DNA from: Pelagomonas calceolata
Taxonomy: Eukaryota
Assembly (NCBI GenBank): GCA_918797485.1
Contig: CAKKNE010000006.1
Span: 2,480,001-2,544,000, forward strand
Length of the DNA stretch: 64,000 bases
Direction of reading: 5' to 3'
Part shown: positions 5,075 through 59,606 of the stretch, piece by piece
Layout of the letters: the number at the start of each line of letters is the position of its first letter
Numbering within the stretch: the first letter of the stretch is position 1
Position numbers and translations under genes: made by a program
The notes under the pieces: generated by a model
Told to the model about the DNA's origin: nothing
What the model saw: the letters and a program-made list of their open reading frames with translations, nothing else
Database searches by the model: none

Positions 5075-5098
5075 GGTAGCGTCGTTGTAACACACTAG
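5075..5098 (-). promoter_or_regulatory. CTAG-bipartite intergenic motif, copy 1
   Basis: Minus strand CTAGTGTGTTACAACGACGCTACC, between divergent genes. Confidence 0.55.
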
Positions 5099-5306
5099 TA
5101 TTTCAGCCGCGGCCTCGTAAAACGCGCACCGCTCCTCTATACGGACTGCGCGCACGCCTGTAGAGCGTCTGCGACCGCGCGATCACTGCGCCGGGCAACT
5201 CTGCAGACGCGCCGCAAGCGCCGCGCGCCTTTGGACCCCAAAGGCTTCCACTGACCAAAACGCCGCCGCGGCGCGAGCGACGAGCCGCCGCGCGCGCACG
5301 GCCACC

Positions 5307-6530
5307 ATGCCCCTCGAAAGCACGATAATATGCCTCGACACGAGTGAATTCATGAGGAACGGCGACTTCACGCCGACGCGGCACGAGAGCCAGCAGGACG
5401 CCGCCAATCTCGTAGTAGGAGCGAAGATGCAGCAGAACCCCGAATCATCAGTAGGTGTCCTGACCATGGCGTCGACCGGTCGAGGCGCTGGAGCAAGAGT
5501 GCTTGTGAGCCCTACGGACGACATGGGCAACATTCTGAATTCGCTGCACAACGCGTCCGTCGGCGGCCAGTTGAACTTCGTCGAAGGTGTCCAGGTGGCG
5601 CAGTTGGCTCTCAAACATAGAAGAAACAAGAACGGCGCGCAGAGGATTGTGCTCTTTGTTGGGAGTCCGGTAGAAGCGGAACAAAAAGCACTGGTGAAAG
5701 TGGGAAAACTCCTCAAGAAGAACAATATTGCGGTCGATGTCGTGGTGCTGGGCGACCGGGACGGCAACGCGGACAAGCTACGGGCCTTTGTGGACGCCGC
5801 AAATGCTAATGATAACTCGAATTTAGTTGCGATTCCCGCGGGCGTGGTCCCGTCGGACGTGCTTATATCTTCTCCGGTGATCCAGGGCAAGGACTCCGGC
5901 GGTGGGGGAGGTGGTGGCGAGGCTTCTACGGGCGGCGGCGGCGGCGGCGGTGGCGGCTTCGCGGAGTTTGGGGGCATCGATCCGAACCTCGACCCGGAGC
6001 TGGCGATGGCGTTGCGCATCTCCATGGAGGAGGAGCGCGCGCGCCAGGAAGCAGCCGCGTCCGCGGAGGGGGGCGCCGCGCCGGCGGACGGGGCCGCCGC
6101 CGAGGCCTCGCCGGCCGCTTCAACGGAGGAAGCGCCCGCCGCCTCGACGCCGAAGACGCCCGAGGCGCCGCAGGACGACGACGCCATGGACGAAGATGAT
6201 GCTCTATTACAGGAAGCTCTCGCGATGTCGATGAAGGAGGACACGGAGGGCGCGACCGTCGAGCCCCAGGCTGATCAGATGGAGGACGACGAGGAGGACG
6301 AGGAGATGAAGCTCGCCCTGGCCATGTCCATGCAGCAGGCGTCGTCCGAGGCGCCGGCGCCCGCCGCGGCTGCTGGCGAGTTCAACGACCCCGCGTTCGT
6401 CAACTCCATGCTCGCGCAGCTGCCGGGCGTCGACCCGAACGATCCTGCTATTCAAGCAGCTTTAGCATCGATCAACCAGGGTGGGGAGAAGAAGGACGAC
6501 GACGCGCCGGCGCCGGCGCCGGCGCCCTAG
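5307..6530 (+). CDS. RPN10: 26S proteasome regulatory subunit Rpn10/PSMD4
   Basis: vWA domain MPLESTIICLDTSEFMRNGDF...QLALKHR; UIMs DPELAMALRISMEEE, LLQEALAMSM and MKLALAMSM; C-terminal LPGVDPNDP. Confidence 0.97.
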   Translation: MPLESTIICLDTSEFMRNGDFTPTRHESQQDAANLVVGAKMQQNPESSVGVLTMASTGRGAGARVLVSPTDDMGNILNSLHNASVGGQLNFVEGVQVAQLALKHRRNKNGAQRIVLFVGSPVEAEQKALVKVGKLLKKNNIAVDVVVLGDRDGNADKLRAFVDAANANDNSNLVAIPAGVVPSDVLISSPVIQGKDSGGGGGGGEASTGGGGGGGGGFAEFGGIDPNLDPELAMALRISMEEERARQEAAASAEGGAAPADGAAAEASPAASTEEAPAASTPKTPEAPQDDDAMDEDDALLQEALAMSMKEDTEGATVEPQADQMEDDEEDEEMKLALAMSMQQASSEAPAPAAAAGEFNDPAFVNSMLAQLPGVDPNDPAIQAALASINQGGEKKDDDAPAPAPAP

Positions 6531-6700
6531 CCTATCTATCATAACGTTACGTAGTACACAGCGAGTTAAAGAGATATCGGGTCGGACGACGATAGGCGTG
6601 GTGGTGGCGTGGACTGGGGCCAGCGCGACCACTCAGCTCACGCGACAGACCCTCGCACACAGACCTCGAACGGACGATGATGGGCGCGTAGTACAAGGAC

Positions 6701-7516
6701 CTAGCTCACGCAACACAAGCCCGGGGGCCCCTCGCCCGCGTCCGCCCGTCTTCGAGCCTCGCGCCGCCGCATCGCGTCCTGGCGGATGCGCCGCGCGTGC
6801 TTCCCCGAGGGCTGCGGTCTTCCTAAACGCGAAAACCGCCGACATCGATCCAACACGTCCTCGACCAAGGCAGAAGCGGCGCCTCCAGTGGACACGTTGT
6901 CCAATAAACAGTGCCCTCCCCGCAACGAGTCCGCGGCGACCCGCGCGTCGCCGTCCAAACCCTCCAAGAATTCTTGGAGCGACGCCTCCTCCAGCAAGTC
7001 GGCGTGCGTCCACACTAAGCATGCACTATTCCGCCAGGCCCGTCCGAGGGCGAACCCAACAGCTACCATAGCTTCCAAATCGGCCGTGTTCAAGCGAGAC
7101 GCGCAGGACGCCACATACAGTACGGAGAAGCGCGCCTCCTTTCCCGTAGTTGTGACGGCTTCTTCGGCCTCCTGCGTCGCTTTTCTAATAGCCGCGGCCG
7201 TGGCGTTCGTCCCCAAACCAGCATCGCCGAAGCCCGGCGTGTCCAGGACCACTAAAGCGTCGCCGCAGGCCACGCCGCAGCTCTTCGTGACGGGGCCCGC
7301 GGATCTTTGAGCCCGGCGCTTTTCTACATTACCAGACAAGCGGTTCGCGGTCGCCGATTTACCGGCGCCGCAGAGGCCGACGAGCACTATAACTAGGACT
7401 TCATCCTTTGCTTTGGAAGCGCACTGCATGATCTCTTGCGCGTCGCTGGCGTCGAGGAGGGACGGCTCGTCATTGGTGATGGACAAGTTGTTGAGTTGCG
7501 CCTCAAGCTCGGCCAT
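6701..7516 (-). CDS. AIG1/GIMAP-type P-loop GTPase
   Basis: IVLVGLCGAGKSATAN (G1), VTKSC (G2), VLDTPGF (G3), WTHAD (G4). Confidence 0.85.
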   Translation of the reverse strand: MAELEAQLNNLSITNDEPSLLDASDAQEIMQCASKAKDEVLVIVLVGLCGAGKSATANRLSGNVEKRRAQRSAGPVTKSCGVACGDALVVLDTPGFGDAGLGTNATAAAIRKATQEAEEAVTTTGKEARFSVLYVASCASRLNTADLEAMVAVGFALGRAWRNSACLVWTHADLLEEASLQEFLEGLDGDARVAADSLRGGHCLLDNVSTGGAASALVEDVLDRCRRFSRLGRPQPSGKHARRIRQDAMRRREARRRADAGEGPPGLCCVS

Positions 7517-7679
7517 TTTGCAGCTGTGGGTGCTGCTTGTTGGGCCAGCGGCGTTACGCCTCGAGCGTGAGTGATCTAGCCTTCGCAGCAGTCGATAGCG
7601 ATCGATGGTGCAGTGCGGCGCCCGTTTTAACACGCCAGCGGGCCAATGCGTGCAACTCAAAAAGCTGCGTAAACTCGCA

Positions 7680-7703
7680 GCTAGCGGATCGTAACACACT
7701 AGG
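7680..7703 (-). promoter_or_regulatory. CTAG-bipartite intergenic motif, copy 2
   Basis: Minus strand CTAGTGTGTTACGATCCGCTAGC, about 165 bp upstream of the GTPase ATG. Confidence 0.65.
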
Positions 7704-7734
7704 AAGTAGAACCGACAAAAGACTCACACAACTA

Positions 7735-10700
7735 CTACTTATGCCCCTCGTGCCGGTGGTGCTCCTCCTCCGCAAGATGGTGAAGCCCCTCGCGCAACCG
7801 CGACACGCCGCCCATGCTGTGGAGCCCGTGCTCGCGCGCCCATTCCACGTCCGCGCCGTCCGCGACGGCACCTAACGCCTCAAGGGCGTTGTCCTCGTCC
7901 CTCCGAACGACGTGGCTCTGGTGTTTCGTGGTCTTCATCCGCACTTCCACATCTGCTCTCCTTGTCTTATATCCCCTAATAGAAAACCACCGGTCCTGCT
8001 GTTGGGGACTGAGGAAGTGGCCCATCCGCACCGAATGCGTCTGCGTGCGCACGGTCCCGCGGTACTTAATAACTAAATTTTGAAAACAGTAGATCAGTGT
8101 GAGTGACACTTTCTCCGCCAAGGTACAAGAGGTATCAGGATCCATGTACCGATGAACTCTCTCCACATCCGCGTCACTCTCGTCCGTACTATGGTCGCAG
8201 CGCTGCGTCAGGGCCTCGTAGAACTCCGTGAGCTGCGTACAGCCCAGCTCCCGCATGTCTTTTGCCGACGGGACTTGTACGCTTCGATCGACTAACCTAA
8301 CAAAGGCCTCCAAAAAAGTGACCCACGACAACGCTCTGAATTTGGGAGCGCCCTCATCAATGAATTTCATCCTACTAAAGACGAAGGCATGGGTGGCTTC
8401 TGAACGAGATAGATTCCTAGCATACAGGCCCGAGTGCTCGACGAACAAAAACCACTCCTTGAGGCCGAATAAAGTTCTTCCAGCGATGGGGTGCATCCCT
8501 GAGTATAGTTCAAATAGCCCTCTCAGGATGGATTTGTGTCGCAACAACGCCGTATCCACTTCCTCGCAGTACAACTTCCGCCGCCGAAACTCGTCCGCGT
8601 CGACGACCACGTCGTGCGGCAGATGTAGTAAATGATCTCTCAAAACGTGATGTAAGGCATCGCTCAAAATTTCCACCGCATGTTCCGGGTGTTCCCTAGC
8701 GTGTTGCTCCACATTACCCTTGGCCACGGCGATCCGTAATAAAGCTTCCACCAGCTCGTGGCGCATCATGGCCGTGTCGTCGTTCGCCGCGTTGAGCTTG
8801 CTGTCCTTGTTGCCGACTTCGACGTTGACCTGGACGAAGATGCGCTGGGCGAGTTCTGAGGTAATCTTGGTGCCTTCAGCCTCATGCCGGTGGTGCTCCT
8901 CCTCCGCGAGGTGGTGGAGCCCCTCGCGTATCATGGTAACGCCGCCCAGGCTGTGGGGCTGCTCCTGGGGCGCCGGCGCCGGTCCCCTCATCGAGGCACC
9001 ACGCCGGAGGCTTCGTTTATCCTCGAGTAATGAAGCATCTCTGAGTAAAGAAAAAAAGGCGTTTTGCGACATGTCGAAGGGATCCGCATTCGAACTTCGA
9101 TAGCCGTAGTACTCCATGCACTGCGACAGGAGGCGATACATGGGCAGCATCTCGTGTCTTATAGCTTCGACGATCGCCTCGGTGCCGGAACCGTCCGGTA
9201 ATTGCCCAGCGAGTCGATTGATGAATTTCGGCCAGCGCGGTTGCTCCTCCAAAATCCTCAGGTCTTGCGCGAGCATCCGCGCGTGAACCTTCTCAGGGTT
9301 GTAGAAGCCGTGCGAATCGGCCTCCTTGATTCTGGGGGCGTATATAGATTCAGCTAGCTTCCAAACAGGTCTAGGTGTCTCCACATGAACGACGGGCGGC
9401 GGTGGGGGTACGTACTCCACTAACAGATGCAGCGTGTACCGCGGCAGCATGCCCAGTGGCGTCCTCGAGTGGCCTAACAACTCCATGCTTCGTAGGTGTG
9501 GCATGTGGTGCCTGTGGCATCTTGGACAATCAACTACGTCTCTCTCCGACAAAGGGTCGATGTCCTCAAGTGTATCAAGTGCAGGCGTCTTCAGATCCGA
9601 CAACGCGTCGTCGTCCGACCATAATTGAGGTTCTGTAGGCCTCAACCATGCGCCAGGATCCAACACCTCACACGGCACACGACTAGCGTGATGTAAGTGG
9701 TACCGCTGGTCGGGCCCGCCGTCGGGGTCGGCAAAGGCGTAAGAAGAAAACATGTCTCCTACCACTGATCCTGGGACATGTTTAAATGCACACAAATGAG
9801 TATCACGCATAGCGCGCTGGTCCCAGTTCATATTGCCACCTCTGGCCTCGTTAAACGTAAAACAGTGAGGTTTTCCACCAGGTGCGACAACACAAATTTT
9901 GTCGAGCTGTTGCGCGACCATCGACGAGGCTTGCGAGTAGTCGTCGGGCCATTTCTCCGCTTCCGCATTCACTATGAGGGGCGTCCAGGGGTCGTGCCCT
10001 TTCTCGGTCGGGACACTTCCTTTCCTTCCAGCAGGACCTATCCGATGCGAGCCGGCTCTCGGTCTTGTGGCGTCTAACGCCGCGCATTTCTGCCTTCGTT
10101 TAGATGGTGCACTCTTGGGTCGAGGTGGTATGGGTTCGCGCACGGCCCGCACCGCGAAATACGGATCTTTTTCTCCCTCGACTTGAGGAGTCCAGAGTGT
10201 GGACGCGTGGCGGCCCCATTCGGTGCAAGCCTTGCCGGGGTGTTTCCGGTAGGTCGCCGACTGGGGCCGCGACGGCTGCGGCGGGCCGTACGGTCGCATC
10301 AACCGAGGCACGTACTCGTCATTTTTGAATGTTTCCAGGAACCAGGTTTCATACCTCTTCGTCAAGTTTTGTTTGATGCGCGGCAGATTCTCGGGCGTGT
10401 TTTCTGGTTCGTCGGAGCCTAGGCGTCTTGGAACTACGGGCGCAAATCCCGCGTCCAATCGCTGACAGTAGGCTAGGAACCGGGCGCGCGCGTCCCTTTG
10501 TAAGTTTGAGAGAGTAGAGACGGCGAGTTCCCTCGTAACGACATCCACGTCACTTTCATCGGGTGCCGTGGCCACGTCAACGAGAGCGGCGAGGCCGTGC
10601 TCCGCCAACACAGTCGTCGCGTCCTTGCCTCCTGTCGACAGGTTCAACAGGCAGTGCAACGCTTCTTTCCGGAATGATGCGGAGCGCTCCATCATGACTA

Positions 10701-13590
10701 AGCGCGACAGCCCCTTGGCGCACTTCTGGGCCAATGGAGCTTTCGTTTTAGGATCACGGGAAGCCAGAAATTGAATAGCAAACAGGGCCGCGCGACAGAC
10801 GCCGTCGCATCTATCGGAAGCCAAGGCGGCGCTCGGCGCCTCGATGAGCTGCTTCGTCGAGTGCATCCTTTCTAATCTTTTTCTATGTCGTCTCGAGTGA
10901 CATACTAACCACAGTAATAACATTGAAGACTGCGTCGTTAACTCACTCCTTGTATGAATAGATCCATAGGAAGAGAACGTGATGCGATCTAACGATAGTA
11001 TGAGAGAAGAGGGCGTCCTTTGTAAGTCGGGGTCTTGCGCGAACTCGGTCTCGACGGAGACCCGCCATAACACAGCGAGCACGTCCCGCCGACAAGCTAT
11101 CAGAGCTTCGTCGTCCTCTGGCTCTTTCTCTCTTAGCAACTCCCGGGCGAAAGGCATGATGTCCAGGTCTGAAGACTCGTACAACAACTCGAACTCCATG
11201 AGCATACGAATGGCACACAACGACGCCCGACAGACCGTCTCCAGTATCCGAGCATCCCTCGACATGCGCCCGGCCTTCTTCGCCGCCAAGGCCCCGATCT
11301 GACAGCACAAGCGGACGCCTCGCACTAAGACTTGTAAAGCGTCGTGGTCATTTTTCTGAGCAGCTTTACGACTGCATCGAACGAAGGCCACGAGCACGAA
11401 GACCAACGCATCAGACCGGGGACCGGCTCGCGTCGGCACGATCAAGCACTGCTGCCACTTTGCGACTGCGTCTAAGGCTGATACCAATTCCTCGCACTGC
11501 GCCGACGGCAAGGTACACGATGCCGAGACCAATGCTAGACACTGAGCTAGTGTCGAGACGACGCCACCCTCGCTGTTCGTGGAGATGAGGCGACAGATGC
11601 GCCGCCACGCACTCCTCCCGACGACCGCTTGTTGCCCTTCGGGTGTTTGTGCCGTCTCCAAGACAACAATAGCCAGGGCGAGTTGCGTCTGCGGGTCCTT
11701 CGAGTGTTGTATTTGCTCGAGGCAGCGCCAGATGCCACTAGGGGAGGGGTCGGCGTCGCCGCTTTGTAAACCCAAGGCCAGTAATTGGGAAGCGACCCTA
11801 CATGGTTCTTCAAAATCGAGGTCGTGGGACCGTTCCAAAGCTCGCGTGCACTCCTCCACCAACAACGCGCAAGCGTCGCCTTCGAGGCCCGGTTCCGAGG
11901 TCTTTGTTGCCGCTCTTAATGACAAAAAGGCGTGGGCCGCTCTCGTAGCTAGTTTCAGCGTTTCTAGCCGCTCTTCTCTCGAGGCTTGTGCGGCACGCGT
12001 ATCGCGGTCGTCTTCTATATGACCCTCGGTGATCGACGGCGCCGGGGCCGGCGCCGATTCGATCTCGACCTCGCGGAGGCCATCTCCCACACAAGCCCGG
12101 GCGCAGGCTCTTGAAAGATCAACACAAGCGCGCAACGCGTCGGCGAGGCCCGGTATTACCGTCGATGTCGCCACGCCCGCGAGCGACGCGACGTCAGCAT
12201 CTTTGGTCATACAAAGCCGCAACGCCACGGCGATGGCGTAGCGCGCCGCCTCCAGGGTCGGAAAGGTCCGCATCAGATCCGCTAACGCAAAAAGACCGCA
12301 GTCGTTCGTATAAGAACGCCGCGCTTTCCTCGACGTCGAAAAAACGTCGTACAGACCCCCCAACGCCAGTAACACGAGGTGGTCGTCGTGAAAGTAAGCG
12401 GACGCGGCCCCCTCGAGCACTTCCAACGACTCGCTACTATCTAGTTCAGAATGGCGGCACTGCCGCGCGAAGCATAGCAACGCACCTATGGCCACGTACG
12501 CGACGTCATCCACAATGTCCCTACCTTTGTCTGTTCGCCGTCCGACGAAGCCATGTCTATCACGCGTCGCCCGCCCCTTCTTTGTCTGAGTTATACTATG
12601 AGCCTTGTCGCGCAACCTCCTCATGCCTCTCAACTCTGAAGTATGCTGAGGATCAGGTACACCTCTCCGCAACAACTCGATCAACGCATGGACGTACCCA
12701 CAACTTTGCAAGCGAGAAGCCATCAGACAACTTTGATCAGCTAATCTCCAAGAGGCGCGAATACCGCTCACTAAAATTTCATCATTCATATCTAAACAAC
12801 AACGATGAACAAGTTGTCGCACCAATGAGTCAGAAACGCCGGGCAAGTTCTCGGGCCGCTCCGCGAACTCCCAGACTTCATCTAAAGTTCTTTTTATATC
12901 ATCAGTACTCTGAGGCTTTTCTAGATAATGCGCATACCGCTCCGAGAACTGTTCCGCCTTCCGCTGATACCTCTTGGAAGCGAACTTGTCCCAGGCCTTG
13001 ATCGTGTCGAGCCACTCCTTGTCTGACGTGATTTTCACGTGACCCGGGGCATGAAAAGACGCGTGGTCGCCCCGATCTTCGGCCTCCAGCTCGCGCCACC
13101 AGGCGTCCTCGTTGTCATCCTCACAGTACGGTCGACACAACACGAGGTCGTGGCCGAAGAGCTCCAAGGCTTGTTCTTTCACTTTGTCGAAATGATGGAA
13201 GTGCTTGCGTTCGATTTCCGCGTCTTTCAGTAGTGCGGGTAGCGTGTCCGTCGCTTCCCTAAATAACTTCACTTCGCTCCCGCGGATGTCGGCTTTTTTT
13301 CTCCTTTTCTTTTTTTTGGAATGATGCGCCTCGTGCGCGCGGAGCGCGTGGCCCCTTACGATCTTGTGGACGCGGCCGTCGGCTAGGGCTGTAGCCAGGA
13401 CGCCCTTCGGTAAAGCATCGAGGGCCTTTCGCGCGGCGGCGGCGGCGGCGGCGGCGGCCTCCGCGTCGGCTTTGCGCGCGGCCAGCCGCGTCGCCTCGGC
13501 CTGGGCAGCCTGCTCCTCATCAGACAATTGCGCGCTCTTGTCGGGCTTCGGCGGCGACTTGGCCTTCTTGCCCTTCTTCTTCTTCGCCAT
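7735..13590 (-). CDS. Large (1951 aa) armadillo/HEAT-like helical repeat protein with an EF-hand-like helical C-terminal region
   Basis: Uninterrupted 5.8-kb ORF. ARM-like segments EALHCLLNLS and ELAVSTLSNL; C-terminal MRHELVEALLRIA and WVTFLEAFVRL helices. Confidence 0.7.
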   Translation of the reverse strand: MAKKKKGKKAKSPPKPDKSAQLSDEEQAAQAEATRLAARKADAEAAAAAAAAARKALDALPKGVLATALADGRVHKIVRGHALRAHEAHHSKKKKRRKKADIRGSEVKLFREATDTLPALLKDAEIERKHFHHFDKVKEQALELFGHDLVLCRPYCEDDNEDAWWRELEAEDRGDHASFHAPGHVKITSDKEWLDTIKAWDKFASKRYQRKAEQFSERYAHYLEKPQSTDDIKRTLDEVWEFAERPENLPGVSDSLVRQLVHRCCLDMNDEILVSGIRASWRLADQSCLMASRLQSCGYVHALIELLRRGVPDPQHTSELRGMRRLRDKAHSITQTKKGRATRDRHGFVGRRTDKGRDIVDDVAYVAIGALLCFARQCRHSELDSSESLEVLEGAASAYFHDDHLVLLALGGLYDVFSTSRKARRSYTNDCGLFALADLMRTFPTLEAARYAIAVALRLCMTKDADVASLAGVATSTVIPGLADALRACVDLSRACARACVGDGLREVEIESAPAPAPSITEGHIEDDRDTRAAQASREERLETLKLATRAAHAFLSLRAATKTSEPGLEGDACALLVEECTRALERSHDLDFEEPCRVASQLLALGLQSGDADPSPSGIWRCLEQIQHSKDPQTQLALAIVVLETAQTPEGQQAVVGRSAWRRICRLISTNSEGGVVSTLAQCLALVSASCTLPSAQCEELVSALDAVAKWQQCLIVPTRAGPRSDALVFVLVAFVRCSRKAAQKNDHDALQVLVRGVRLCCQIGALAAKKAGRMSRDARILETVCRASLCAIRMLMEFELLYESSDLDIMPFARELLREKEPEDDEALIACRRDVLAVLWRVSVETEFAQDPDLQRTPSSLILSLDRITFSSYGSIHTRSELTTQSSMLLLWLVCHSRRHRKRLERMHSTKQLIEAPSAALASDRCDGVCRAALFAIQFLASRDPKTKAPLAQKCAKGLSRLVMMERSASFRKEALHCLLNLSTGGKDATTVLAEHGLAALVDVATAPDESDVDVVTRELAVSTLSNLQRDARARFLAYCQRLDAGFAPVVPRRLGSDEPENTPENLPRIKQNLTKRYETWFLETFKNDEYVPRLMRPYGPPQPSRPQSATYRKHPGKACTEWGRHASTLWTPQVEGEKDPYFAVRAVREPIPPRPKSAPSKRRQKCAALDATRPRAGSHRIGPAGRKGSVPTEKGHDPWTPLIVNAEAEKWPDDYSQASSMVAQQLDKICVVAPGGKPHCFTFNEARGGNMNWDQRAMRDTHLCAFKHVPGSVVGDMFSSYAFADPDGGPDQRYHLHHASRVPCEVLDPGAWLRPTEPQLWSDDDALSDLKTPALDTLEDIDPLSERDVVDCPRCHRHHMPHLRSMELLGHSRTPLGMLPRYTLHLLVEYVPPPPPVVHVETPRPVWKLAESIYAPRIKEADSHGFYNPEKVHARMLAQDLRILEEQPRWPKFINRLAGQLPDGSGTEAIVEAIRHEMLPMYRLLSQCMEYYGYRSSNADPFDMSQNAFFSLLRDASLLEDKRSLRRGASMRGPAPAPQEQPHSLGGVTMIREGLHHLAEEEHHRHEAEGTKITSELAQRIFVQVNVEVGNKDSKLNAANDDTAMMRHELVEALLRIAVAKGNVEQHAREHPEHAVEILSDALHHVLRDHLLHLPHDVVVDADEFRRRKLYCEEVDTALLRHKSILRGLFELYSGMHPIAGRTLFGLKEWFLFVEHSGLYARNLSRSEATHAFVFSRMKFIDEGAPKFRALSWVTFLEAFVRLVDRSVQVPSAKDMRELGCTQLTEFYEALTQRCDHSTDESDADVERVHRYMDPDTSCTLAEKVSLTLIYCFQNLVIKYRGTVRTQTHSVRMGHFLSPQQQDRWFSIRGYKTRRADVEVRMKTTKHQSHVVRRDEDNALEALGAVADGADVEWAREHGLHSMGGVSRLREGLHHLAEEEHHRHEGHK

Positions 13591-13744
13591 CGCTTTGCAC
13601 GCTGCCCCGTGGGGCTTGCGATGCTGCCCAGGCGCTAGCCTCTCACAGCGCCACGACTCGCGGGCGACGTGGGAACTCGCACTAAGACTCGTCCGGCGGC
13701 TCGGGCGGATGCGTGGTTGACGTCGAAAGAGCGATTCTTGCTTG

Positions 13745-13769
13745 CTAGTGTGTCTTACGTGCCGCTAGC
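13745..13769 (+). promoter_or_regulatory. CTAG-bipartite intergenic motif, copy 3
   Basis: CTAGTGTGTCTTACGTGCCGCTAGC, between divergent genes. Confidence 0.65.
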
Positions 13770-13946
13770 CGCGATGGCATGAACTTTGAAGGCGGCACGA
13801 CGCGAGCTGTGCATACCCACAGCTTGTAAACACGCTTTGAAAATCAGCAAAATCATCCATTTCAAACGCTGCGGCGCTCGCTTGCTCGTCTCCGCGCGGC
13901 CGCACTACAAGCAGGCTGCTCTCTCTCAGCACTGTGACGCCGAGGC

Positions 13947-14933: not shown

Positions 14934-14951
14934 TGTATAATGTGAATAGTA

Positions 14952-17125: not shown

Positions 17126-17142
17126 TCACATTAGTAGTATAT

Positions 17143-18229: not shown

Positions 18230-18250
18230 GCTAGCGGAGTAAGACACTAG
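18230..18250 (-). promoter_or_regulatory. CTAG-bipartite intergenic motif, copy 4
   Basis: Minus strand CTAGTGTCTTACTCCGCTAGC, between divergent genes. Confidence 0.7.
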
Positions 18251-50058: not shown

Positions 50059-50281
50059 GGATGACTGATATTGGCTGCAGGTCGAGGATTGAGCTCTGCG
50101 CGCCTTGTTTTAGCTCACTGAAATGGCTGCACCCTGAGCATGAGCAGTACGCGCTGCTAGCGCAAAAATGGACTAGGCAGGCCGACCGGCGATGGACACG
50201 AGTTGCCTGACAGCTCTTTGCTTTGCTTGGCTTGCACTTGCAGGCTAGCTTTGCAGCTTTTTGCCGGTGTGGCCTAGATTG

Positions 50282-50304
50282 CTAGTGTCTTACTAACCGC
50301 TAGG
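50282..50304 (+). promoter_or_regulatory. CTAG-bipartite intergenic motif, copy 9
   Basis: CTAGTGTCTTACTAACCGCTAGG, centred between divergent ATGs. Confidence 0.7.
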
Positions 50305-50504
50305 TGCCAATTACCCAAATCGAGCGCGTGCATCGCCTCCGCAGCGCATAGCTGAGTCGCAGACGTCTCCGAGCAGCCGCAAACGAGCCCAGACAAATCG
50401 CTGACTGGCACTCGCAAGCCTGCCCGGCGCTCGCTCCCACAACAAGCACAGCAGAGCAACACACGTAAGTGCTGCAAAACGCCGCCGCCGCGACAAGAAA
50501 CGGC

Positions 50505-52715
50505 ATGGAGGCCCTCACCCTCGCCTGCGCCGGCGCCGAGGCCTTGGTCGGCGTCGCCGGCATCATCGTCGACCAGAACAAGTCGTTCCACTACGACGCG
50601 TCGCTCGAGGACGCTCTCGCAGCGTTAGCGTTCTGCGCATTAGTGACGCTTGTACTAAGACAACAAGAGCGCCACGGCTTGGCCGCCTTCGCCTCCGTGG
50701 TAGGTTTGCTCTACGGCGGTGCCAAGGGCCTTGTCATCGGCCTCTCGCACCACTCGGTGAACACGGCATCTATTGTACTGTGCGCCGTATGCGGTGTCCT
50801 CGCGGTCGGGTCCATCGCGGGCTCCCTGCGGGAACGCCGCATCCTGCGAGATAATGATGATTACCAGCTGCTCGAGGACGGCGCCAAGCCCGCGCGCCTG
50901 TCAGCCTACGCGATATTACGCTTACTGAAACCTTACTTCTGGCCCCGGAGTTTAGTTGGAAGATTAGCTGTGTTCTCCACTCTACTCTTCGTCATACTGA
51001 GCAAGGTCTGCACGGTAGTGGCGCCACTAGTATTAGCGAGTGCTGCGGACGCCGTCGCCGCGAGGGACAAGAATGGAGTACATAAAGCAATAAAAATGTC
51101 GCTGTTCTACGCTCTATTAACGTTCACGGGCAAGGTGATGAAGGAATGTCAATCCCTAGCTTACCTAAATGTGCAAAAATACGCCTTCATCGACCTGTCC
51201 TCAGATACCTTCGCGCACCTCCATTCGTTATCTCTACAGTGGGCTTTGTCCAAGAAGATGGGCGAGGTCGTGAGAATTACCGACAGAGGAATAGCTGGCT
51301 GTGACACGTTTATGAAGTATGGGGTCCTGTACATAGGACCGTCGATCGGGGAGGCGGTCGCGGTCTGTATCCTCTTCTACGTCCATTTCAAGCTCTGGAG
51401 TCTCTCGTTATTAGTCTTTGGTGCTGTGGGTGCGTACGCCATCTTAACCGTAAAGATGACCTTGTGGCGGAAGCGCTTCCGCTCCGCCATGAACAAGTCG
51501 GACAACGCGTGGCACGACCGCCTGACGGATTCGCTGGTCAACTTCGAAACCGTAAAATATTTTACTGCTGAGGCGTACGAGAACGAACAATTTTCCCGAG
51601 AGATCGCCAAGTACCAGAAGAGCTCCGTCTCAGTACAAGCATCTCTATCCGCATTGAACATCAGCCAGCAGGTTATTTTATGTGGTTGTTTAGGAGGGGC
51701 CATGGCTCTTTCTGCCTTAGCGGTTCACAAAGGCGAAGCCAGTGTAGGAGGCTTCGTGGCCGTCAACGTCTGGGTCATCAACTTGTTTGCGCCTTTAAAT
51801 TTCCTCGGGACGGTCTACAACGCTCTCATCACGGCTACTGTAGACTTAAGGAATTTATCAGAGCTACTTGCACAAAAGCCGCTCGTCAAAGACGGTCCCG
51901 CGGAGCACCCGGCGCTCGCTTCCAAAAGCCCTATTGGGGTGGCTTTTGCGGATGTCAAGTTCCGGTATCCCGGCGTCACGGCAGTAGACGCCGGTTTGAA
52001 GCAGGTGTCCTTCGAGGTTAAAGCGGGGACGTCATTAGGCATCGTCGGCCCCACCGGTGCGGGCAAGTCGACGATAGCCCGGTTACTGTTTCGCTTCTTC
52101 GATGTGGAAGGGGGTTCCGTGAGCGTGGGCGGTCTCGATGTTCGTAGTGTCACACAAGCGTCTTTGCGACGGCTCATGGGCGTCGTGCCGCAGGACACGG
52201 TCCTGTTCAACTCTTCCTTAGATTACAATATAAGGTACGGCAAGCGGAACTGCTCTACGGAAGAACGCGACGACGCCGCGAAACATGCATCTCTCAGTGC
52301 TTTCGTTAGTCGCTTAGAGGAGGGCTGGGACACGGTTGTGGGCGAGCGCGGGCTGAAACTGAGTGGGGGCGAGAAGCAGCGCGTGGCCATCGCGCGGTTG
52401 TTCGTCAAGAATCCTCCGATAGTGCTGCTCGACGAAGCGACCTCGGCTTTGGACTCGCGGACCGAGGCGGACATCCAGGGCGCTTTAGCGGCGCTGTCGT
52501 CCGATCGCACGTCCGTGACCATCGCGCATCGATTGGGCACGATCTCGAATTGCGATGCGATCATCGTGTTGAATGCCGGAAGGATCACGGAGCGCGGGTC
52601 GCACGCGGAATTGCTGGCGCTCGAGGGCGAGTACAAGGCCATGTGGGACGCGCAAGCTAGGAATTCGGAGGCCGAGGAGGTCAAGGAGGAGCCTTCCGAG
52701 GCCGAGCCCCAGTGA
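50505..52715 (+). CDS. ABCB6/HMT1/ATM1-type ABC half transporter with an N-terminal membrane extension
   Basis: LKPYFWP, DSLVNFETVKYF, PLNFLGTVY, Walker A GPTGAGKS, VVPQDTVLFN, LSGGEKQR, LLDEATSALD, IAHRL. Confidence 0.93.
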   Translation: MEALTLACAGAEALVGVAGIIVDQNKSFHYDASLEDALAALAFCALVTLVLRQQERHGLAAFASVVGLLYGGAKGLVIGLSHHSVNTASIVLCAVCGVLAVGSIAGSLRERRILRDNDDYQLLEDGAKPARLSAYAILRLLKPYFWPRSLVGRLAVFSTLLFVILSKVCTVVAPLVLASAADAVAARDKNGVHKAIKMSLFYALLTFTGKVMKECQSLAYLNVQKYAFIDLSSDTFAHLHSLSLQWALSKKMGEVVRITDRGIAGCDTFMKYGVLYIGPSIGEAVAVCILFYVHFKLWSLSLLVFGAVGAYAILTVKMTLWRKRFRSAMNKSDNAWHDRLTDSLVNFETVKYFTAEAYENEQFSREIAKYQKSSVSVQASLSALNISQQVILCGCLGGAMALSALAVHKGEASVGGFVAVNVWVINLFAPLNFLGTVYNALITATVDLRNLSELLAQKPLVKDGPAEHPALASKSPIGVAFADVKFRYPGVTAVDAGLKQVSFEVKAGTSLGIVGPTGAGKSTIARLLFRFFDVEGGSVSVGGLDVRSVTQASLRRLMGVVPQDTVLFNSSLDYNIRYGKRNCSTEERDDAAKHASLSAFVSRLEEGWDTVVGERGLKLSGGEKQRVAIARLFVKNPPIVLLDEATSALDSRTEADIQGALAALSSDRTSVTIAHRLGTISNCDAIIVLNAGRITERGSHAELLALEGEYKAMWDAQARNSEAEEVKEEPSEAEPQ

Positions 52716-52736
52716 GTAAGAGGTCTTTTGTTATTT

Positions 52737-52759
52737 CTAGTGTCTTACTGGCCGCTAGC
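52737..52759 (+). promoter_or_regulatory. CTAG-bipartite intergenic motif, copy 10
   Basis: CTAGTGTCTTACTGGCCGCTAGC, upstream of ATG 52990. Confidence 0.7.
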
Positions 52760-52989
52760 CCTGGCACGCGCCGCGTTTTTGCTCGAATTTCGTCCGCAGA
52801 ACCAATTCACGGCCCGATAGTGGCACGCGGCCTTCGAGTGCGCAACACGGCGACCACGGATCGCGGGGTCAAAGAGCTATCTCTTGCTAGGATTGGTGTC
52901 TGGTTGGCAATTTAGCTGGCGTGTGGCCTAATACATATCTCTTGTCCGTCTCGCCTCTAAAGTCGACTCCCAGGAGGCGCACGGTACCG

Positions 52990-53571
52990 ATGTTTCGCCT
53001 CGGTTTCGTGGGCTCGATCTTCACGACCGGCGTGGTCACGGGCCAGGCGGTTAACGACGCGAACCGCGTCAACCGGCAGACCTCGGATCAACTGCTGGAC
53101 AATGAGATACTCGTCGCCGAGACGAAATTGAAGAAAGCCAAGGCGTCGCAAGGGAGATGCTGCGGCGCGTCCGAGCGCACGGTCGCACGACTCGAAGCGC
53201 GTCTCGCGAAGCTGCGCCTGGTCAAGGAGGACCGGGCGACCTTCGACGTCGTTGTGCCGCCGGGGGGGCATGCGGGCGCGCTCCTCCAAGTAACGGACCC
53301 AATGGGCCGCGTCGTCAACGCGACCGTGCCCGACGGCCTCCGCGAGGGCGACACGTTCTCGCTGCCCTACGTCGACAAGCTACCCGTCGCGGCGGCGACG
53401 GCGACTCCGGCCAACACGCCCCTGTCGCAAGCCGTCCCTTCGAGCAGCTCTAGCGGCGCGCCGACGGGCGGCGACGGCGAGCCGTCCGGGTCGTCCGGCC
53501 CGTCGAGCCGCTCGAGCGCCCACCAGAGTGTCATCTCCGAACAGCCGACACTCCAGAGCGATCCCAGTTGA
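52990..53571 (+). CDS. Hypothetical protein with a coiled coil and a VVPPG beta-repeat
   Basis: FDVVVPPGGHAGALLQV...ATVPDGLREGDTF, the same module type as gene 18420. Confidence 0.55.
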   Translation: MFRLGFVGSIFTTGVVTGQAVNDANRVNRQTSDQLLDNEILVAETKLKKAKASQGRCCGASERTVARLEARLAKLRLVKEDRATFDVVVPPGGHAGALLQVTDPMGRVVNATVPDGLREGDTFSLPYVDKLPVAAATATPANTPLSQAVPSSSSSGAPTGGDGEPSGSSGPSSRSSAHQSVISEQPTLQSDPS

Positions 53572-53627
53572 GGCCGACTACGCCGATTGACATTCACGCT
53601 CAGTTCGTAATTCACACTTGATTCTTA

Positions 53628-54677
53628 CTAGTAGTAGTCCGGGTCGTCGCCGAGCGTCAGCGTCGACGATGCAAGTTGTCGCTTTTTGCGCGCGTTCTCC
53701 GCCCGCTGCCTGCCGAGTTCCCCGCCCGTCACGCGCCCGGAAAACAGTTCGTGGTTCGAGTGCCAGTAGTCGTTCGCGTGGTCACCGAGCCGCAGGGTCG
53801 AAGCCGAGTTCTTGAGGCGCAGCTGTTTGTTGTGCGCCCGCTCCGTCTGCAGCTGGCGGTAGTGCTTCTCGTAGTCGATGGGCGCCGCGGGCGACGGGTC
53901 GTATTTTTCATCTCCAGCTTTCCGCTCCCACGAGAGCGCGTCGGACTTGCCGTACTTGAATTGTATTTTTTTGTCCCAGCACGCGCGCCGTTGTTTGAAG
54001 AAGGCCGTGTCCGGCTTGCTCGCGACGCCCTTGCCGGCCGCGCTCACGCGGTCCGCGAAGCGTTTCGAGGGACCCCTATCTTGGCCGCCTTGGGGCAACT
54101 TTTGGATGGGCGGCAGGGCCTGGCGCGGCCGCGGCGGCTCGCGCGGCGGCGGCTCGCGCGCGCGCGGCGGCGACGCGACGAAGCGGCCCACGCCGGTCGG
54201 CGCCGGCGGCGCGCGCGGCTGCCGCTCGTGCGCCGCCAACGCCGCGGCCGTCAGGCGCGCTGGCTGTGCGTTTACGTTAGGTTCCACTGGCCCTCGTCGC
54301 GCAGGCTCGAACCTCGGCGCTTCGGACCGTCGCCGTGCTGGCTCGAGCCTCGGCGCTTCGGGCTGCCGCCGCGCCGCGGGCGCCGCCGCGCGCAGCGGCG
54401 CGGCCACGCGCTCGCGCCACGTCGACGCCCGCCGCGGTTTGAGGATCGTGTCCTCGCGCTCGTCGACCGCGGCGCGCCGTCGCCGCCGCGGCGGCGGCTG
54501 CTTGTAGGACGGCCGCGCCGAGGCCGGCGCGAGGCGCTGCTGCTTGAGCGCGTAGGCGTCGCGGATCGTGCCCGGCAGCGCGGGCAGCTGCTCGCGCCGG
54601 GCGAAGCTGCCCGCGTGGGGGCGGCTCAGGCCGTGGCTCTGCTTCATGCGCGCGAGCATGACCTCCTGGAGGCCCAT
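53628..54677 (-). CDS. Hypothetical Pro/Arg-rich protein
   Basis: 349-aa ORF with a duplicated STL(R/T)LGD motif at the C-terminus. Confidence 0.55.
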   Translation of the reverse strand: MGLQEVMLARMKQSHGLSRPHAGSFARREQLPALPGTIRDAYALKQQRLAPASARPSYKQPPPRRRRRAAVDEREDTILKPRRASTWRERVAAPLRAAAPAARRQPEAPRLEPARRRSEAPRFEPARRGPVEPNVNAQPARLTAAALAAHERQPRAPPAPTGVGRFVASPPRAREPPPREPPRPRQALPPIQKLPQGGQDRGPSKRFADRVSAAGKGVASKPDTAFFKQRRACWDKKIQFKYGKSDALSWERKAGDEKYDPSPAAPIDYEKHYRQLQTERAHNKQLRLKNSASTLRLGDHANDYWHSNHELFSGRVTGGELGRQRAENARKKRQLASSTLTLGDDPDYY

Positions 54678-55086
54678 TTTGTCGCCTCCCGCTGTGCTCC
54701 TCTAGGGCCCTCGCGTTTGTTGCTCCCTGCAGTCGGCTGAGAGCAGTGCAGCAACTCAGCTCGTGGTCCGCAATGCAGTTCCGGACGAAACAGTCGCGTC
54801 GAATGGCGTGCGGGTGGACGATCGCGTCCTTTGGTGGCTGCCCTATGCCTATATCGATCTTTTGGGCAGCGCTCTCCCTGTTTGTTTGCATGGCGCTATC
54901 AAAGTGCTGCACCCGCACCCGCAGTGCACGAGTGAAGCCTAGCTGGAGGGCACAGCCAGTCAAAATAGCGGTCGTAGAGCTCCCTCGCGCTGCGCCGGCA
55001 AAACCCGTTGACTTTCCATAGTTATCCCCGCGGGAGCGGCCGCGTGGGGCGCGCCGCCTGGGCGGGGGGAGGACGCCGTCGGCGCG

Positions 55087-55631
55087 CTAGAGCTCCGCGA
55101 GGTAGTAGTCCAGGGCTCCGTCCACCGCCTGGTAGCCGTGGCCCGTGCGTCGGTTGACGAAGCCCTCGACCTGTTTGTTGAGGTCGTTGGACTCGCGGTA
55201 TACGATGTCCCGGCCCTCGAAGATGTTGTACGACCGGCCCTCCTTCTTGTCGACGCTCACGTCGACTAAGAAGTGCGCGTCGTCGTTATTTTCATCGCCT
55301 TTGATATTCTTGTCGAACTCGAAATCCATCGCTTCGACGCGTTTGCCGTCCTTCTTGAACTCGTTGCGTCCTTCAGCCGATGATTTCTTCACCTCCTCGA
55401 CGCCGATGTCTTTGAGCTCGAGCAGTTTGCCCGCCTTGTCTTTGAGCGAGAGCTCTTTCTCGTCCGCATCCTTGAATTTGGTCGGGCGGCAATCACACGT
55501 CGTGATGACAATCGGGCAGAGGTCCTTGATCTCCTCGGGATATTTTGAGAGGTCTGCTTTGTAGTCGTCCCCCTCCGTCTCCCAGCGCGGGGCCGCGGTC
55601 TTGGACTCGGTCTCCACACGAGAGGCCGACA
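55087..55631 (-). CDS. Hypothetical acidic/lysine-rich protein
   Basis: Strongly GC3-biased codons from MSASRVETESK. Confidence 0.6.
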
Positions 55632-55866
55632 TGATTATTGCTGTAGGCGAGTGGTTTCGAGTCGCTTTGCGCGGTGGTTGGCCGCTCTTGGATGATGAGT
55701 CGCGTCGGCTGGACGGCGTGCGAGAGCGTGTCCTCTGTGGCGAGTTAGCGCTCAATAAAGCCGGAAAGCTGGAAATTTGGGAGATGAGCTGGAGATATGG
55801 AGATGGCTGCTGGGCTTACCGACGCGCGTACGCCGTCGACGCGAACGATCAAACAAACAACACTAA

Positions 55867-57204
55867 TTACCCCTCCGTCCGCCACTCGTGCCCGCACGCC
55901 CGGCACGACACCGCCCACATGGAGTCCGGCGCGTCCTTCGACCCCCAGGTCTCCGTCTTGTGGGTCTGGAGGTTGCCGCCCCCTAAGGGTTCGCGGTCCG
56001 TGCGGCACGACCCGCAGGCGACGCACGGCCAGCCGTCGGCGCGGTCCTCGTCGCGCGTCACGACGATCTCTTCGCCGGCGCGCGCGTAGAGCTGCGTCGG
56101 CCGCGTGGGCTTGCGCCGCGACGCCTCCGCCTCGGACCCGAGCAGCGCCCCGAAGGGGTCGTCGTCGTCGGGCGCCTGCTGGCGCTCGGCCAGCCGCTTC
56201 GCCGCTTCCACTCCAACCGCCTCGGCGGCGCGCGCGAAGGCCCGCTGCCAGGCGCCCTCGACGCGCGGCGCCGCCGCGTCGATGCGGTCCCGCGCAACGA
56301 CGCGGCTCCGGCCTCTCCGGAACGCCGCGCCGGCGAACCAGTGGTAGAGGCAGGCGGCGCCGCCGCGGTCCGTCTCGAGGCAGGCCGGCGCGCCGCACGC
56401 GTCGCAGGTCTGGCGCGGGTCCGGCGGCGCGAGTTGTCGTGGTGGTGGCGCCGCCCCCGGCGGCGCCCGCGCCGGCGCGGGTCGTCGTGGTGGGGGCGCT
56501 GGGCGCCGCGGCGGCGGCGGCGCGGGCGGGCGCGGCGGTGCCGACGCCGGCGCTTCTGCGGCTGCGGCGGCTAACCGCTCCCGCGCGCTCTTCTTCTTCG
56601 GTCGCTTCGGCGCGGGCCGGAGCGCCGCCGCGAGCGGGTCGCGCGGCCGCGTCGAGCGCACTCCAACAATCGTCGCGCCGCGGCCCGGCGCGGGGGCCCG
56701 CTTCGAGGCGAGGTGGCGGCGGTCCGATGGCGGTGGCTCCACGGTCGTCGCGGCGTAGCCGAAGACGTTGCGGTGGCGCGCTGGCTGCTGGTCCACTTGC
56801 GGTGGCGCTGGTGGCGCTGGCGGCTGTGCCGGCGCTGGCGGCGCTGGTGCTGGCGCCGGCGGTGGCGGTGGCGCTGCAGCTGGCGTATCAGCAGCGTCGT
56901 CGTCCCGGGTCAGGTCCACCACTTGTTGTGGCGCTGGCGCTGGCGGCTGCGCTGGCGCTGGTGCTGGCGCTGGCGCTGGCACTACGTCGTCAGACCCCGG
57001 CAATTCCGGCTCGGCCGGCGCAGGGGCGGGCGCGCGCCGCCGCCGTCGCCGCGGCGGTGCGGCCGGAGCCGGCGCAGAGGGCTCCTCCTCGGCAGCGCGG
57101 CGCGTGGCGCTCCGCGTCCGCCGTCTACCGGCGCGTGCGGTCGCCGGCGCGTCGTTGCTGCCGGCCGTGTTGTGATCAGCTATTTCGCGCAGGGCACGCT
57201 TCAT
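55867..57204 (-). CDS. Pro/Ala-rich protein with a C-terminal zinc ribbon (TFIIS-C-like)
   Basis: CDACG...CLYH and CVACGS...CRACGHEW. Confidence 0.65.
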   Translation of the reverse strand: MKRALREIADHNTAGSNDAPATARAGRRRTRSATRRAAEEEPSAPAPAAPPRRRRRRAPAPAPAEPELPGSDDVVPAPAPAPAPAQPPAPAPQQVVDLTRDDDAADTPAAAPPPPPAPAPAPPAPAQPPAPPAPPQVDQQPARHRNVFGYAATTVEPPPSDRRHLASKRAPAPGRGATIVGVRSTRPRDPLAAALRPAPKRPKKKSARERLAAAAAEAPASAPPRPPAPPPPRRPAPPPRRPAPARAPPGAAPPPRQLAPPDPRQTCDACGAPACLETDRGGAACLYHWFAGAAFRRGRSRVVARDRIDAAAPRVEGAWQRAFARAAEAVGVEAAKRLAERQQAPDDDDPFGALLGSEAEASRRKPTRPTQLYARAGEEIVVTRDEDRADGWPCVACGSCRTDREPLGGGNLQTHKTETWGSKDAPDSMWAVSCRACGHEWRTEG

Positions 57205-57382
57205 TGTCGACCGCTGGCGTGAGTACGAGCTTGTACAAGAGAGAGAGCCCACAGCACAGAGCTGCGTCAGCGGGCTTATTCCTCGAGCGGCGTGCACCAG
57301 GCCTTCGCAGCGATCGATAACGCTTCCTGGCAGTGCGTTTTACGCGCCAGCGGGCCAGGCGTGCGCGGTGCCAAAAAACGCA

Positions 57383-57405
57383 GCTAGCGTCCATTGACAC
57401 ACTAG
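57383..57405 (-). promoter_or_regulatory. CTAG-bipartite intergenic motif, copy 11 (divergent)
   Basis: Minus strand CTAGTGTGTCAATGGACGCTAGC, centred between divergent ATGs. Confidence 0.55.
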
Positions 57406-57591
57406 CGCGCAGAGGTCCTTGCGAAAAATATCGCATTGGCAGCCCAGAGACACGGCATTGCTGTTTGTGGAAGCTTCTGCAACCAAATTAATCGCTCCTC
57501 GGCGAGTCCTGCGCGTTTGCAGCACCAGATTTGCCGGAGAGCACGCTTAAAACACAAAGGCTGCGCCAGACGCCATCGACGCGATCACAAG

Positions 57592-59551
57592 ATGGTCAAC
57601 TACTCCAAGTGGGACGCCATCGGCGATTCGTCAGACGACGAAGCACCATCAAGACTAGCGCAGGACGTCCAGACCAAATTAGCGGTCGCGCCTCCGGAAG
57701 CCCCGCCGCGGAACCCGAAAGCGGAAGTGCTCACCGATAGAGCCAACCAGGTCGTCAATTCCTTGATCGAGAAGCACGGCGAGGACAAAAGTCGACTCCT
57801 AGGCCCCGACGAGCGCGCCGCCTACCGCGAAGCCTGTACCTTGTATGATGGCGCCCTCAAAAACATGGAGGTCAAGGACGACAAGCTTTCCAGTCGTATT
57901 TTACTAAATATGGCCACGTGCCACTGGCAGGTCAACGAGTTCGGGCCGGCTAGGAAGGCTGCTTCCAGAGCATTGGACTTTGCCGTCGCAGAAGACAAGA
58001 GCAGAGCTCAAGACATCGTGGATGCCTGCGATCGAGAGCTTCGTAGAGTCGCGTCCACAAAAGACGGCGTCGACCACGCGGCCGCGGGCGACGCGGCTCT
58101 GCACGCGAAGGATTTTGCCGCTGGAGCCAAACATTTCTCCGCACTTTGTAAGGCCTTCAAGGGTAGCGGCGGCGAGGACGAGATCCACGCGTTGGCGCAT
58201 TTGGCTCTTTGTTATGAACAGCAGTCGAAATTCGGCGAGGCGGCTTCGCATTATGATAAAGCCGCCGAGGTCTGCGACAAGACGGATCAGGCCTCCGCAT
58301 CCACACCTCGACGGGCGCAGCTCGCGCAACGGGCCCAAATGTGCTACGAGAAGAATGGCGAGGATTCGAAGAGCGCCGCGTCGTGTGCGCGCGAGACGCG
58401 GCGGTGCGCTGATGACGCTGAATTGGCGCTGAAGTGCGCGGGGGCCTTCGCGCAGCGCTACCGTGAGCGGCAGTGTGGAATTTGGCTCGCTCCGACGGCG
58501 TCTAAGATCTCGCGTCCACGCAGGCAAGGAAAAGAAGAGCAAAGCCCTCGTGCTGCCCGCCTTAACGGTCGCCGTCGAGACCGCGACGAAAGCGAGGAAA
58601 CGGGACCCGAAGTGCCTGAAGACCGCTTCCCAAAGATTACTGTTGGCCACCGTCCTGGACGCGCTCGCGGACGGTCTATCGACACAGAAACAGTTCAAGG
58701 ACGCCCTACCAAAGGCCGAACGCGCCCTCAAGGAGTACGACGCCGTCGCCAAGGCCCATTTGCGGGCGAAGAACGAAGACGAGAACTTCCGCGCGCGGCG
58801 CGCGGCGGCGGGCTGCGCTCTAGCGGTGGCGTCCTGCCGCGCGGCGCTGCACAAGTACGACGACGCGGGGGACCAGTTCCGCGACGCCTCGAACCGCTAC
58901 GCGGGCGTGTCCGAGTTCCTGCGGGCGGGCCAGGCGGCCCTCAGCGCGGCGCGGTGCTTCACGAACGCCGGGTGCTCGCCGGAAGGCACGCAGGGGACCA
59001 TCGACGCCGAAGGTGGCCCGGGCGCCGCCGCGAACGTCGAGGACTACCAGCAGGCCGCGAAACTACTCGCGATTGCGTTAGATCTACCAAAAAACTCCGC
59101 AGACGACAAGGCCGCCATACAATCTTTACTAGCGAAGTCTCTGGTCGGCGCCGGGCGACCCAACGACGCCGTCGGCCCCGCAAAAAGTGCATTAGCTTAT
59201 CTCGATGCGAAACCTCGATCGGCGAATGACTCAAAGGACCGGGCCTCGGCCTGCGAGACGCTCGCCGACGCGCTGGCCGGCGCGGATCGACTCAGGGACG
59301 CGGCCTCGTGCCTCGAAAAGGCCGCGGTGTACTGCTTCGAGGACGATACACATCTGGGCACGGCGGGGGCCCAGCACCTCTTCAACGCCGCCGGCGCGCT
59401 CCAAAAGTGCGGCGACGGCGACGAGAGCGCGGCGATGTTCCGGAAAGCTAGAGACGCGTACAAGCGGCTCGGCCACCCGAAGGCCGCGCAGACGGCGCAG
59501 GAGCACGCGGAAGCGGCGTTGCGGGCGTGCGCCGAGGCCGTGCTGGACTGA
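57592..59551 (+). CDS. TPR-repeat protein with a Cdc37-like N-terminal motif; GT-AG intron at 58463-58523
   Basis: MVNYSKWDAIGDSSDDE followed by TPR-like helices. The 61-nt intron joins ORF 57436 and ORF 58463 in frame (QRYR|KEKKSK). Confidence 0.75.
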
Positions 59552-59584
59552 GGGTTCTTTTTTTGAGACGGGTAAGTTTACTCG

Positions 59585-59606
59585 CTAGTGTCTTTATGCC
59601 GCTAGT
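59585..59606 (+). promoter_or_regulatory. CTAG-bipartite intergenic motif, copy 12
   Basis: CTAGTGTCTTTATGCCGCTAGT, about 100 bp upstream of the rhomboid ATG. Confidence 0.6.

Follow-up and report, generated by a model that had tools for sequence, protein, structure and literature searches.

A short two-armed element beside transcript ends in Pelagomonas calceolata is a candidate site for a general promoter factor

How are genes started, and kept apart from one another, in a very compact genome? A 64,000-nucleotide stretch of the pelagophyte Pelagomonas calceolata (contig CAKKNE010000006.1, positions 2,480,001 to 2,544,000; hereafter the window) raises this question through a short inverted repeat that recurs between its genes. 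P. calceolata is described as among the most abundant ocean eukaryotes, and its nuclear genome comprises 32.4 Mb in six contigs, with a GC content of 63% (PMC9481584); the window is likewise 63% GC and gene-dense. An initial annotation of the window had interpreted the repeat as an orientation-independent general promoter element or, alternatively, as a domesticated transposon footprint. Our analysis supports the first interpretation, in that on both sides of the element RNA ends are no more than tens of bases away and the element is kept in relatives, and does not support the second. We consider it likely that the element is bound by a general promoter factor that is abundant and specific to this lineage, with transcription starting on either side of it and upstream transcripts ending before it.

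All 12 reported copies are present in the window, and each could be given an exact span and a strand, defined by the reading in which CTAGTG comes first. Six copies lie on the plus strand and six on the minus strand. The pattern CTAGTGTN{8,14}CGCTA has 10 exact matches, against a shuffle mean of 0.04, and none of 100 shuffles reaches 10; the two copies it misses are 20 bp long, with spacers below its range. The consensus, ttgCTAGTGT(C/G)TTAC-N0-4-(C/A)CGCTAGc, forms an inverted repeat whose arms match imperfectly and are separated by a spacer of variable length. In 23 sites, most of them from separate promoters, it reads (t)(t)(g)CTAGTGT(C/G)TTAC, spacer, (G/A)(C/A)CGCTAG(c), an invariance of the arms that is partly circular because the sites were picked by their arms. 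Element length is 20–24 bp, and 22 bp in 12 of the 23 sites. The half-site is GCTAG(T/C)G(T/G)C, and the element has a fixed asymmetry, with CTAGT always on one side and CGCT on the other.

We scored the window with a two-arm weight matrix trained on 16 sites from outside it, a set that is partly dependent on the window (eight sites are orthologues of window copies and eight came from scans with window-derived patterns). The 12 copies score 22.9–33.3 bits, and 15 block shuffles contain no match of 20 bits or more. Element words also rank first in promoter k-mer enrichment. The matrix adds a weaker thirteenth copy, overlooked in the initial annotation (1654–1674, plus strand, in a tandem gap; 15.9 bits, right arm CGCTCG), which two relatives (L022 and L027) keep together with its flanks, and a doubtful degenerate one (37417–37435, minus strand, in a divergent gap) whose 12.3 bits compare with 0.5 shuffle matches per window at 12 bits. 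Three partial copies that had been listed fall to chance level: the sequences at 3219 and 62709 do not reach 6 bits, and the one at 50157 scores 6.3 bits, at which shuffles yield 5.5 matches per window. The 3219 sequence is not kept in the four relatives compared.

The copies are placed closely with respect to genes. As first described, all 12 are intergenic, with the nearest ATG 102–234 bp away. Every copy lies within 300 bp upstream of a listed ATG, and such regions make up 14% of the window (p ~6e-11). On a gene map based on open reading frames (ORFs), copies occupy 8 of 13 divergent gaps, 4 of 13 tandem gaps and none of 9 convergent gaps. The initial annotation had described copies as often midway between divergent genes; this does not apply to the four tandem copies, which lie 21–33 bp past the upstream stop codon. 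The reported absence from convergent gaps is also seen, as weak evidence, since these gaps amount to 1570 of 11374 gap bases. Among 38 gene starts on the list, one of them misplaced, 19 have a strong copy within 235 bp, and Pfam assignments agree with the earlier view that the flanking genes are functionally unrelated. Genes start off both arms: in the tandem gaps the arm facing the single gene is the right one in three cases and the left one in the fourth.

The divergent gaps hold copies at 5076–5098 (minus strand; right arm CGCTAC), between a prolyl-hydroxylase-like gene and Rpn10; at 13745–13768 (plus; 24 bp, with an extra TG), before a DnaJ gene; at 18231–18250 (minus; 20 bp); at 22116–22137 (plus), adjoining an XPG/Exo1-type nuclease gene; at 24614–24633 (minus; 20 bp); at 39137–39158 (minus), 103 and 110 bp from two ATGs; at 50282–50303 (plus); and at 57384–57405 (minus), before a TPR gene. 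The tandem copies lie at 7681–7702 (minus), upstream of an AIG1-type GTPase gene and 32 bp past the stop of 7735–13590; at 43068–43089 (plus), 21 bp past the stop of the ORF 43111–43818; at 52737–52758 (plus), behind an ABC-transporter gene; and at 59585–59605 (plus), 33 bp past the stop (59551) of a spliced TPR gene and 102 bp before the ATG of a rhomboid gene.

We used poly(A) RNA reads and RNA-type contigs placed on positions 4800–24799 and 49600–60600, which leaves copies 39137 and 43068 outside the comparison, to locate transcript ends relative to the element. The contigs of the second range are RNA, because they skip a GT-AG intron at 58463–58523. Eight gene starts have a piece listed, and for seven of them the RNA contig begins 2–33 bp beyond the edge of the element; such starts occur on both of its sides. 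At 50282–50303, minus-strand RNA extends to 50269 or 50271 and plus-strand RNA begins at 50314, 50317 or 50325, so that two divergent RNAs are separated by 42–55 bp (~45 bp), about half of which is the element. At 57384–57405, rightward RNA starts at 57408, 57415 or 57422, and across the element a short piece of low depth has its end at 57350. Three runs agree within 11–14 bp on the starts beside the element edges at 50303 and 57405. The RNA contig beside 7681–7702 has its 5′ end at 7664, with a cluster of raw-read ends at 7650, and the upstream RNA contig ends at 7738. Further contig starts lie at 13780, beside 13745–13768, and at 18279, beside 18231–18250, where depth falls to 0 at 18237–18238 in three RNA runs; copy 22116 has no transcript-end piece among those listed. 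In 15954–16219, the single element-free divergent gap that has pieces on both sides, the RNA pieces end 266 bp apart (15869 and 16136), versus 42–55 bp at 50282.

Upstream transcripts end on the near side of the element. In all three tandem copies with RNA the upstream 3′ end lies 3–35 bp before it, a result that short gaps alone would also give. At copy 52737, three reads carry untemplated A behind 52733, which places polyadenylation of the ABC-transporter RNA 3 bp short of the element. At copy 59585, 12 molecules end at 59553 and contigs reach 59540–59573.

Conservation at orthologous promoters, a check suggested with the initial annotation, could be run at Rpn10. The Rpn10 protein of the window has many marine relatives at 80–97% identity; the nearest named one, from the pelagophyte Chrysophaeum taylorii, is 58% identical. 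In seven metagenomic relatives the Rpn10 protein is identical over the aligned N-terminal part, and four-fold sites are 35–55% different. In all seven, the Rpn10 promoter retains both arms in the corresponding position; the total length is 18–21 bp, and the middles and spacer are changed. Identity of CTAGT to the window is 0.97, versus 0.37 and 0.64 in the 40 bp on either side. One relative, L022, keeps the element at two more promoters (copies 13745, with identical arms, and 1654), and also has a near-consensus copy 124 bp upstream of its AIG1 ATG, in a promoter that cannot be aligned with that of the window.

Further copies come from fragments with pelagophyte-like sequence. L006/L014 supply three copies from as many successive gaps. 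Two of these copies, L006:921-942 and L014:1639-1660, had not been picked out by the scan pattern, and they lie in gene gaps 124–173 bp from an ATG. In other pelagophyte-like fragments from marine metagenome-assembled genomes (MAGs), sites are 126–159 bp from a predicted ATG (L002, L004, L005, L098) or 347 bp (L007). Prokaryotic genomes gave 15 single matches, of which seven (L001, L002, L004–L007, L014), located at contig ends of marine MAGs, look like pieces of pelagophyte DNA, as judged by GC, position and nearby ORFs; the other eight were taken as chance. Pelagophyte-like DNA at the ends of such prokaryotic contigs (L001, L002, L004–L007, L014, L096, L098) is a probable misassembly. Viral contigs had no match to the strict pattern. 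With a looser pattern they had 18 single matches, which were taken as chance, 16 of them lying inside long ORFs. The pattern CTAGTN{9,14}CGCTAG is absent from 68 more distant Rpn10 loci (L028–L095), which are mostly short transcript-like contigs with little promoter.

A different picture emerges in the sister lineage of the window's group, represented by L016/L017 (support 98/94; ~74% nucleotide identity in genes). Across 15 kb covering five orthologous promoter gaps, these contigs have no element match at 10 bits. They contain ACGGGTTT eight times, against 0.47 expected, always in the gaps corresponding to the four window copies 1654, 5076, 7681 and 13745 (L016:356, 3674, 3700, 6236, 6258, 7007, 7448 and 13426). 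The fifth gap lacks ACGGGTTT, and the same gap lacks the element in the window. The window itself has ACGGGTTT five times versus 1.47 expected, three times in listed element-free gaps, once between ORFs at 55001 and once in coding DNA; window sites include 40743, 43783 and 45676. The motif is near-palindromic, AAAC(GG/CC)GTTT, and we take it to resemble telobox and Reb1 words. It was spotted by eye, its shuffle expectation is uncorrected for the search, and its basis is one lineage and four promoters. On these sequence comparisons, ACGGGTTT is a second candidate promoter motif, apparently swapped for the element between sister lineages. The next outgroup, L025, has neither the element nor ACGGGTTT in 7 kb, so the change may have gone in either direction.

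The surroundings of the element also turn over. A promoter segment ending in the element, 7546–7702, is similar to a second one at 57268–57405 (72% over 109 columns, E 5e-9 among flanks), which stands before a gene unrelated to AIG1. In L022 the orthologue of the 7546–7702 promoter has a different sequence, its own element and an extra ankyrin-like ORF in the gap. Because the L022 AIG1 promoter is unalignable yet carries the element, and that of the window resembles 57268–57405, the sequences indicate that promoter segments are copied or replaced while the element stays.

Could the copies themselves be remnants of small transposons, or by-products of copied promoter segments, without present function? 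The inverted-repeat shape, the confinement of the element to one lineage and the promoter pair that shares ~110 bp next to it would fit, and the left arm read backwards begins CACTA, presumably as CACTA transposon ends do. However, we found no consistent target-site duplication in 23 sites, only chance-like repeats of 2–4 bp in 6 of them, and no shared flanks or body apart from that one pair. None of the seven relatives has an empty site at the Rpn10 promoter, four promoters being comparable in all, and a repeat finder run on the window returned only low-complexity coding repeats and no long family bearing the element. The arms are kept while the spacer and one whole promoter turn over, and there is one copy per gap, at the transcript edge. 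Thus, for the present copies, the proposed transposon footprint is not borne out, and we regard functionless remnants as very unlikely; the element may nevertheless descend from an old transposon. Likenesses to a Helitron end and to RFX and forkhead sites were dropped, there being no upstream hairpin and the needed bases not being conserved.

The inverted-repeat shape also raises the possibility that the element works as a DNA hairpin or cruciform rather than as a protein site read by its bases. Of the cells in the alignment, 81.5% can pair in a 9-bp stem, and for two of six copies folding is better than in shuffles (z -3.9 and -3.0). The other four fold no better, covariation is no higher than in shuffles (85 of 500 reach it), and Rfam has no match at gathering score. 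Within the stem, pair 11–23 shows mismatches in 16 of 22 cells, the outermost bases do not pair in 13 of 30 rows, and no true pair is ever formed at the T/G asymmetry. We therefore think a hairpin the least probable of the explanations weighed here. With no covariation, inconsistent folding and neither target-site duplications nor a shared body, the sequences fit an element read by base, by a protein, and not by folding.

Starting from the observed position of the element, its closeness to RNA ends and its conservation, we propose the following mechanism, in which binding, nucleosome exclusion and roadblock action are modelled on the yeast general regulatory factors (GRFs). A putative protein whose two DNA-binding units are flexibly joined, or a pair of partner proteins, would read the two arms. 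Its binding would exclude a nucleosome and hold open a very short gap (~45 bp), and the bound factor would license initiation by RNA polymerase II in both directions, with starts within a few tens of bases. In tandem gaps the factor may in addition block or bound transcription coming from the upstream gene, the role that Reb1, Rap1 and Abf1 play in yeast.

Several results weigh against this reading or limit it. Half of the genes, expressed ones included, have no copy, and CpG, taken as a proxy for nucleosome phasing, shows no phasing or periodicity on the element (all |z| < 2 for periods of 150–200 bp); CG is low near it. A spacer varying by 4–6 bp is unusual for one rigid protein. At Rpn10 the right arm varies among the relatives (CGCTAG in four of seven, CGCTGG in two, CGATAG in one, and CGCTAC in the window), its column identity is 0.26 owing to the spacer shift, and the RNA contig starts 86 bp from copy 5076. 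Just upstream of that start, the block AGAGCGTCTGCGAC at 5162–5176 is conserved as well as the element or better in the seven relatives; it is possibly a proteasome-gene or start-site motif. Conservation of the copies at 13745 and 1654 adds little, because their flanks are conserved as well (0.88 and 0.76 at 13745). A strict boundary role is harder to reconcile with copy 24614, which is covered by RNA at 24622 (depth 33, 34 and 67), probably from a start inside the element at ~24623 by depth arithmetic. Finally, the transcript-end counts rest on the longest pieces listed, with a piece at eight gene starts, and the element-to-start offsets (2–33 bp for seven starts, 86 bp for one and inside the element for one) come from libraries that were not cap-selected, whose contigs cannot fix a start, so that true starts may be nearer to the element or inside it.

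The last point bears on an alternative in which the element is the core promoter itself. In that case the basal machinery would read each arm as a TATA- or initiator-like signal, with one start at or inside the element and no separate chromatin-opening factor. The unusually close (2–33 bp) and symmetric RNA ends, the one highly expressed RNA that seems to start inside the element, and the match of two arms to two directions all speak for it. Yet the single gene beside a tandem copy is faced by either arm (right in three, left in one), so the arms are not directional; the start of the Rpn10 RNA is 86 bp off; no RNA is listed over three of the copies; and two independent initiators would need neither a variable spacer nor the conserved asymmetric middle (TGTCTTAC). 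We judge this alternative unlikely, though the strongest of those considered. Replication origins, with the element as a licensing site for the origin recognition complex that happens to sit in promoter gaps, would explain why it is bipartite, intergenic, orientation-free and beside T tracts, and some yeasts have origins linked to promoters. A density of one copy per 5 kb, however, exceeds what is usual for origins, which do not need the tight link to RNA 5′ and 3′ ends; we give this explanation marginally less credence than functionless transposon remnants.

A site for a general promoter factor therefore remains our preferred reading, and a bolder version of it can be stated, which we hold only tentatively and expect is more probably wrong than right. 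The 22-bp element would serve as bidirectional core promoter and transcript boundary for about half of the genes, with divergent starts ~45 bp apart and, if the window is typical of the 32.4-Mb genome, ~6,000 copies; it would have arisen on the Pelagomonas branch and would have displaced an older ACGGGTTT at the same promoters. The housekeeping promoter code would thereby have been exchanged across the whole genome as promoter segments were copied, and the protein that reads it might be newly recruited or derived from a transposase.

General promoter motifs confined to one lineage are already known. The Abf1 site of yeast is bipartite, and Reb1, Abf1 and Rap1 sites resemble the element in being short motifs found in many functionally unrelated promoters. 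They differ from it in that the element has a variable spacer and RNA ends 2–35 bp off on both sides; its consensus also lacks the Reb1 core TTACCCK and is not known to match the Abf1 or Rap1 motifs. Yeast GRFs are reported to organise promoter chromatin (PMC5880240), and to block RNA polymerase II physically and so aid termination (PMC5052057). That roadblock work concerns RNAs terminated by the Nrd1–Nab3–Sen1 pathway, whereas in the window the element directly adjoins the poly(A) site of an mRNA. Metazoan divergent promoters are reported to use two core promoters in one nucleosome-depleted region, with Motif 1 and M1BP depleted from such promoters (PMC6203779). Drosophila Motif 1/M1BP is promoter-proximal, like the element, but the element occupies 8 of 13 divergent gaps, with both products stable mRNAs. 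The left arm, TAGTGTG, presumably resembles Motif 1 read backwards. ZNF143/THAP11 and DREF/BEAF sites are composite or palindromic and common at bidirectional housekeeping promoters, and the THAP and BED domains derive from transposases; these proteins are animal-specific and their sites have other sequences. The likeness is a lead. Miniature inverted-repeat transposable elements, CACTA and Helitron ends and pelagophyte introner elements share the inverted-repeat shape and CTAG or CACTA words with the element, but it differs from them in being 20–24 bp long, never in genes and conserved in place, without a target-site duplication, shared body or upstream hairpin.

Other features of the window were seen along the way. 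P. calceolata has introner-length introns (PMC9481584), and related short sequences at 25221–25262, 26070–26135, 26880–26990 and 29095–29180, which end in GATTT(A/G/C)C(G/A)CACAG, are probably introner-type introns. A 60-bp repeat, 85% identical between 30564–30623 and 34364–34422, lies in two consecutive element-free tandem gaps and is possibly another promoter module or a small repeat. Abundant plus-strand RNA at 53660–55255 (5′ ends 53660–53677, 3′ end ~55238) overlaps the minus-strand ORF 53628–54677 and has no long plus-strand ORF from its start; it is possibly an antisense or non-coding RNA, or consists partly of reads from other loci. The 1951-aa gene contains an internal duplication of 80–95 bp (7746–7825 and 8880–8959, 80–84% identical).

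We found no description of the element or of pelagophyte promoter motifs in a literature search that left most subscription papers outside, and the words 'motif' and 'promoter' do not occur in the main text of the P. calceolata genome paper and preprint (PMC9481584). What is new here is the sequence itself, the variation in its spacer, a two-way architecture of very short span and what looks like a swap between sister lineages. The element may serve as a compact two-way promoter for genetic tools and as a marker for annotating gene starts. It would offer a case in which the replacement of a general promoter motif at orthologous genes of sister lineages can be tested, and a first handle on how genes are started and separated in the very compact genome of P. 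calceolata.

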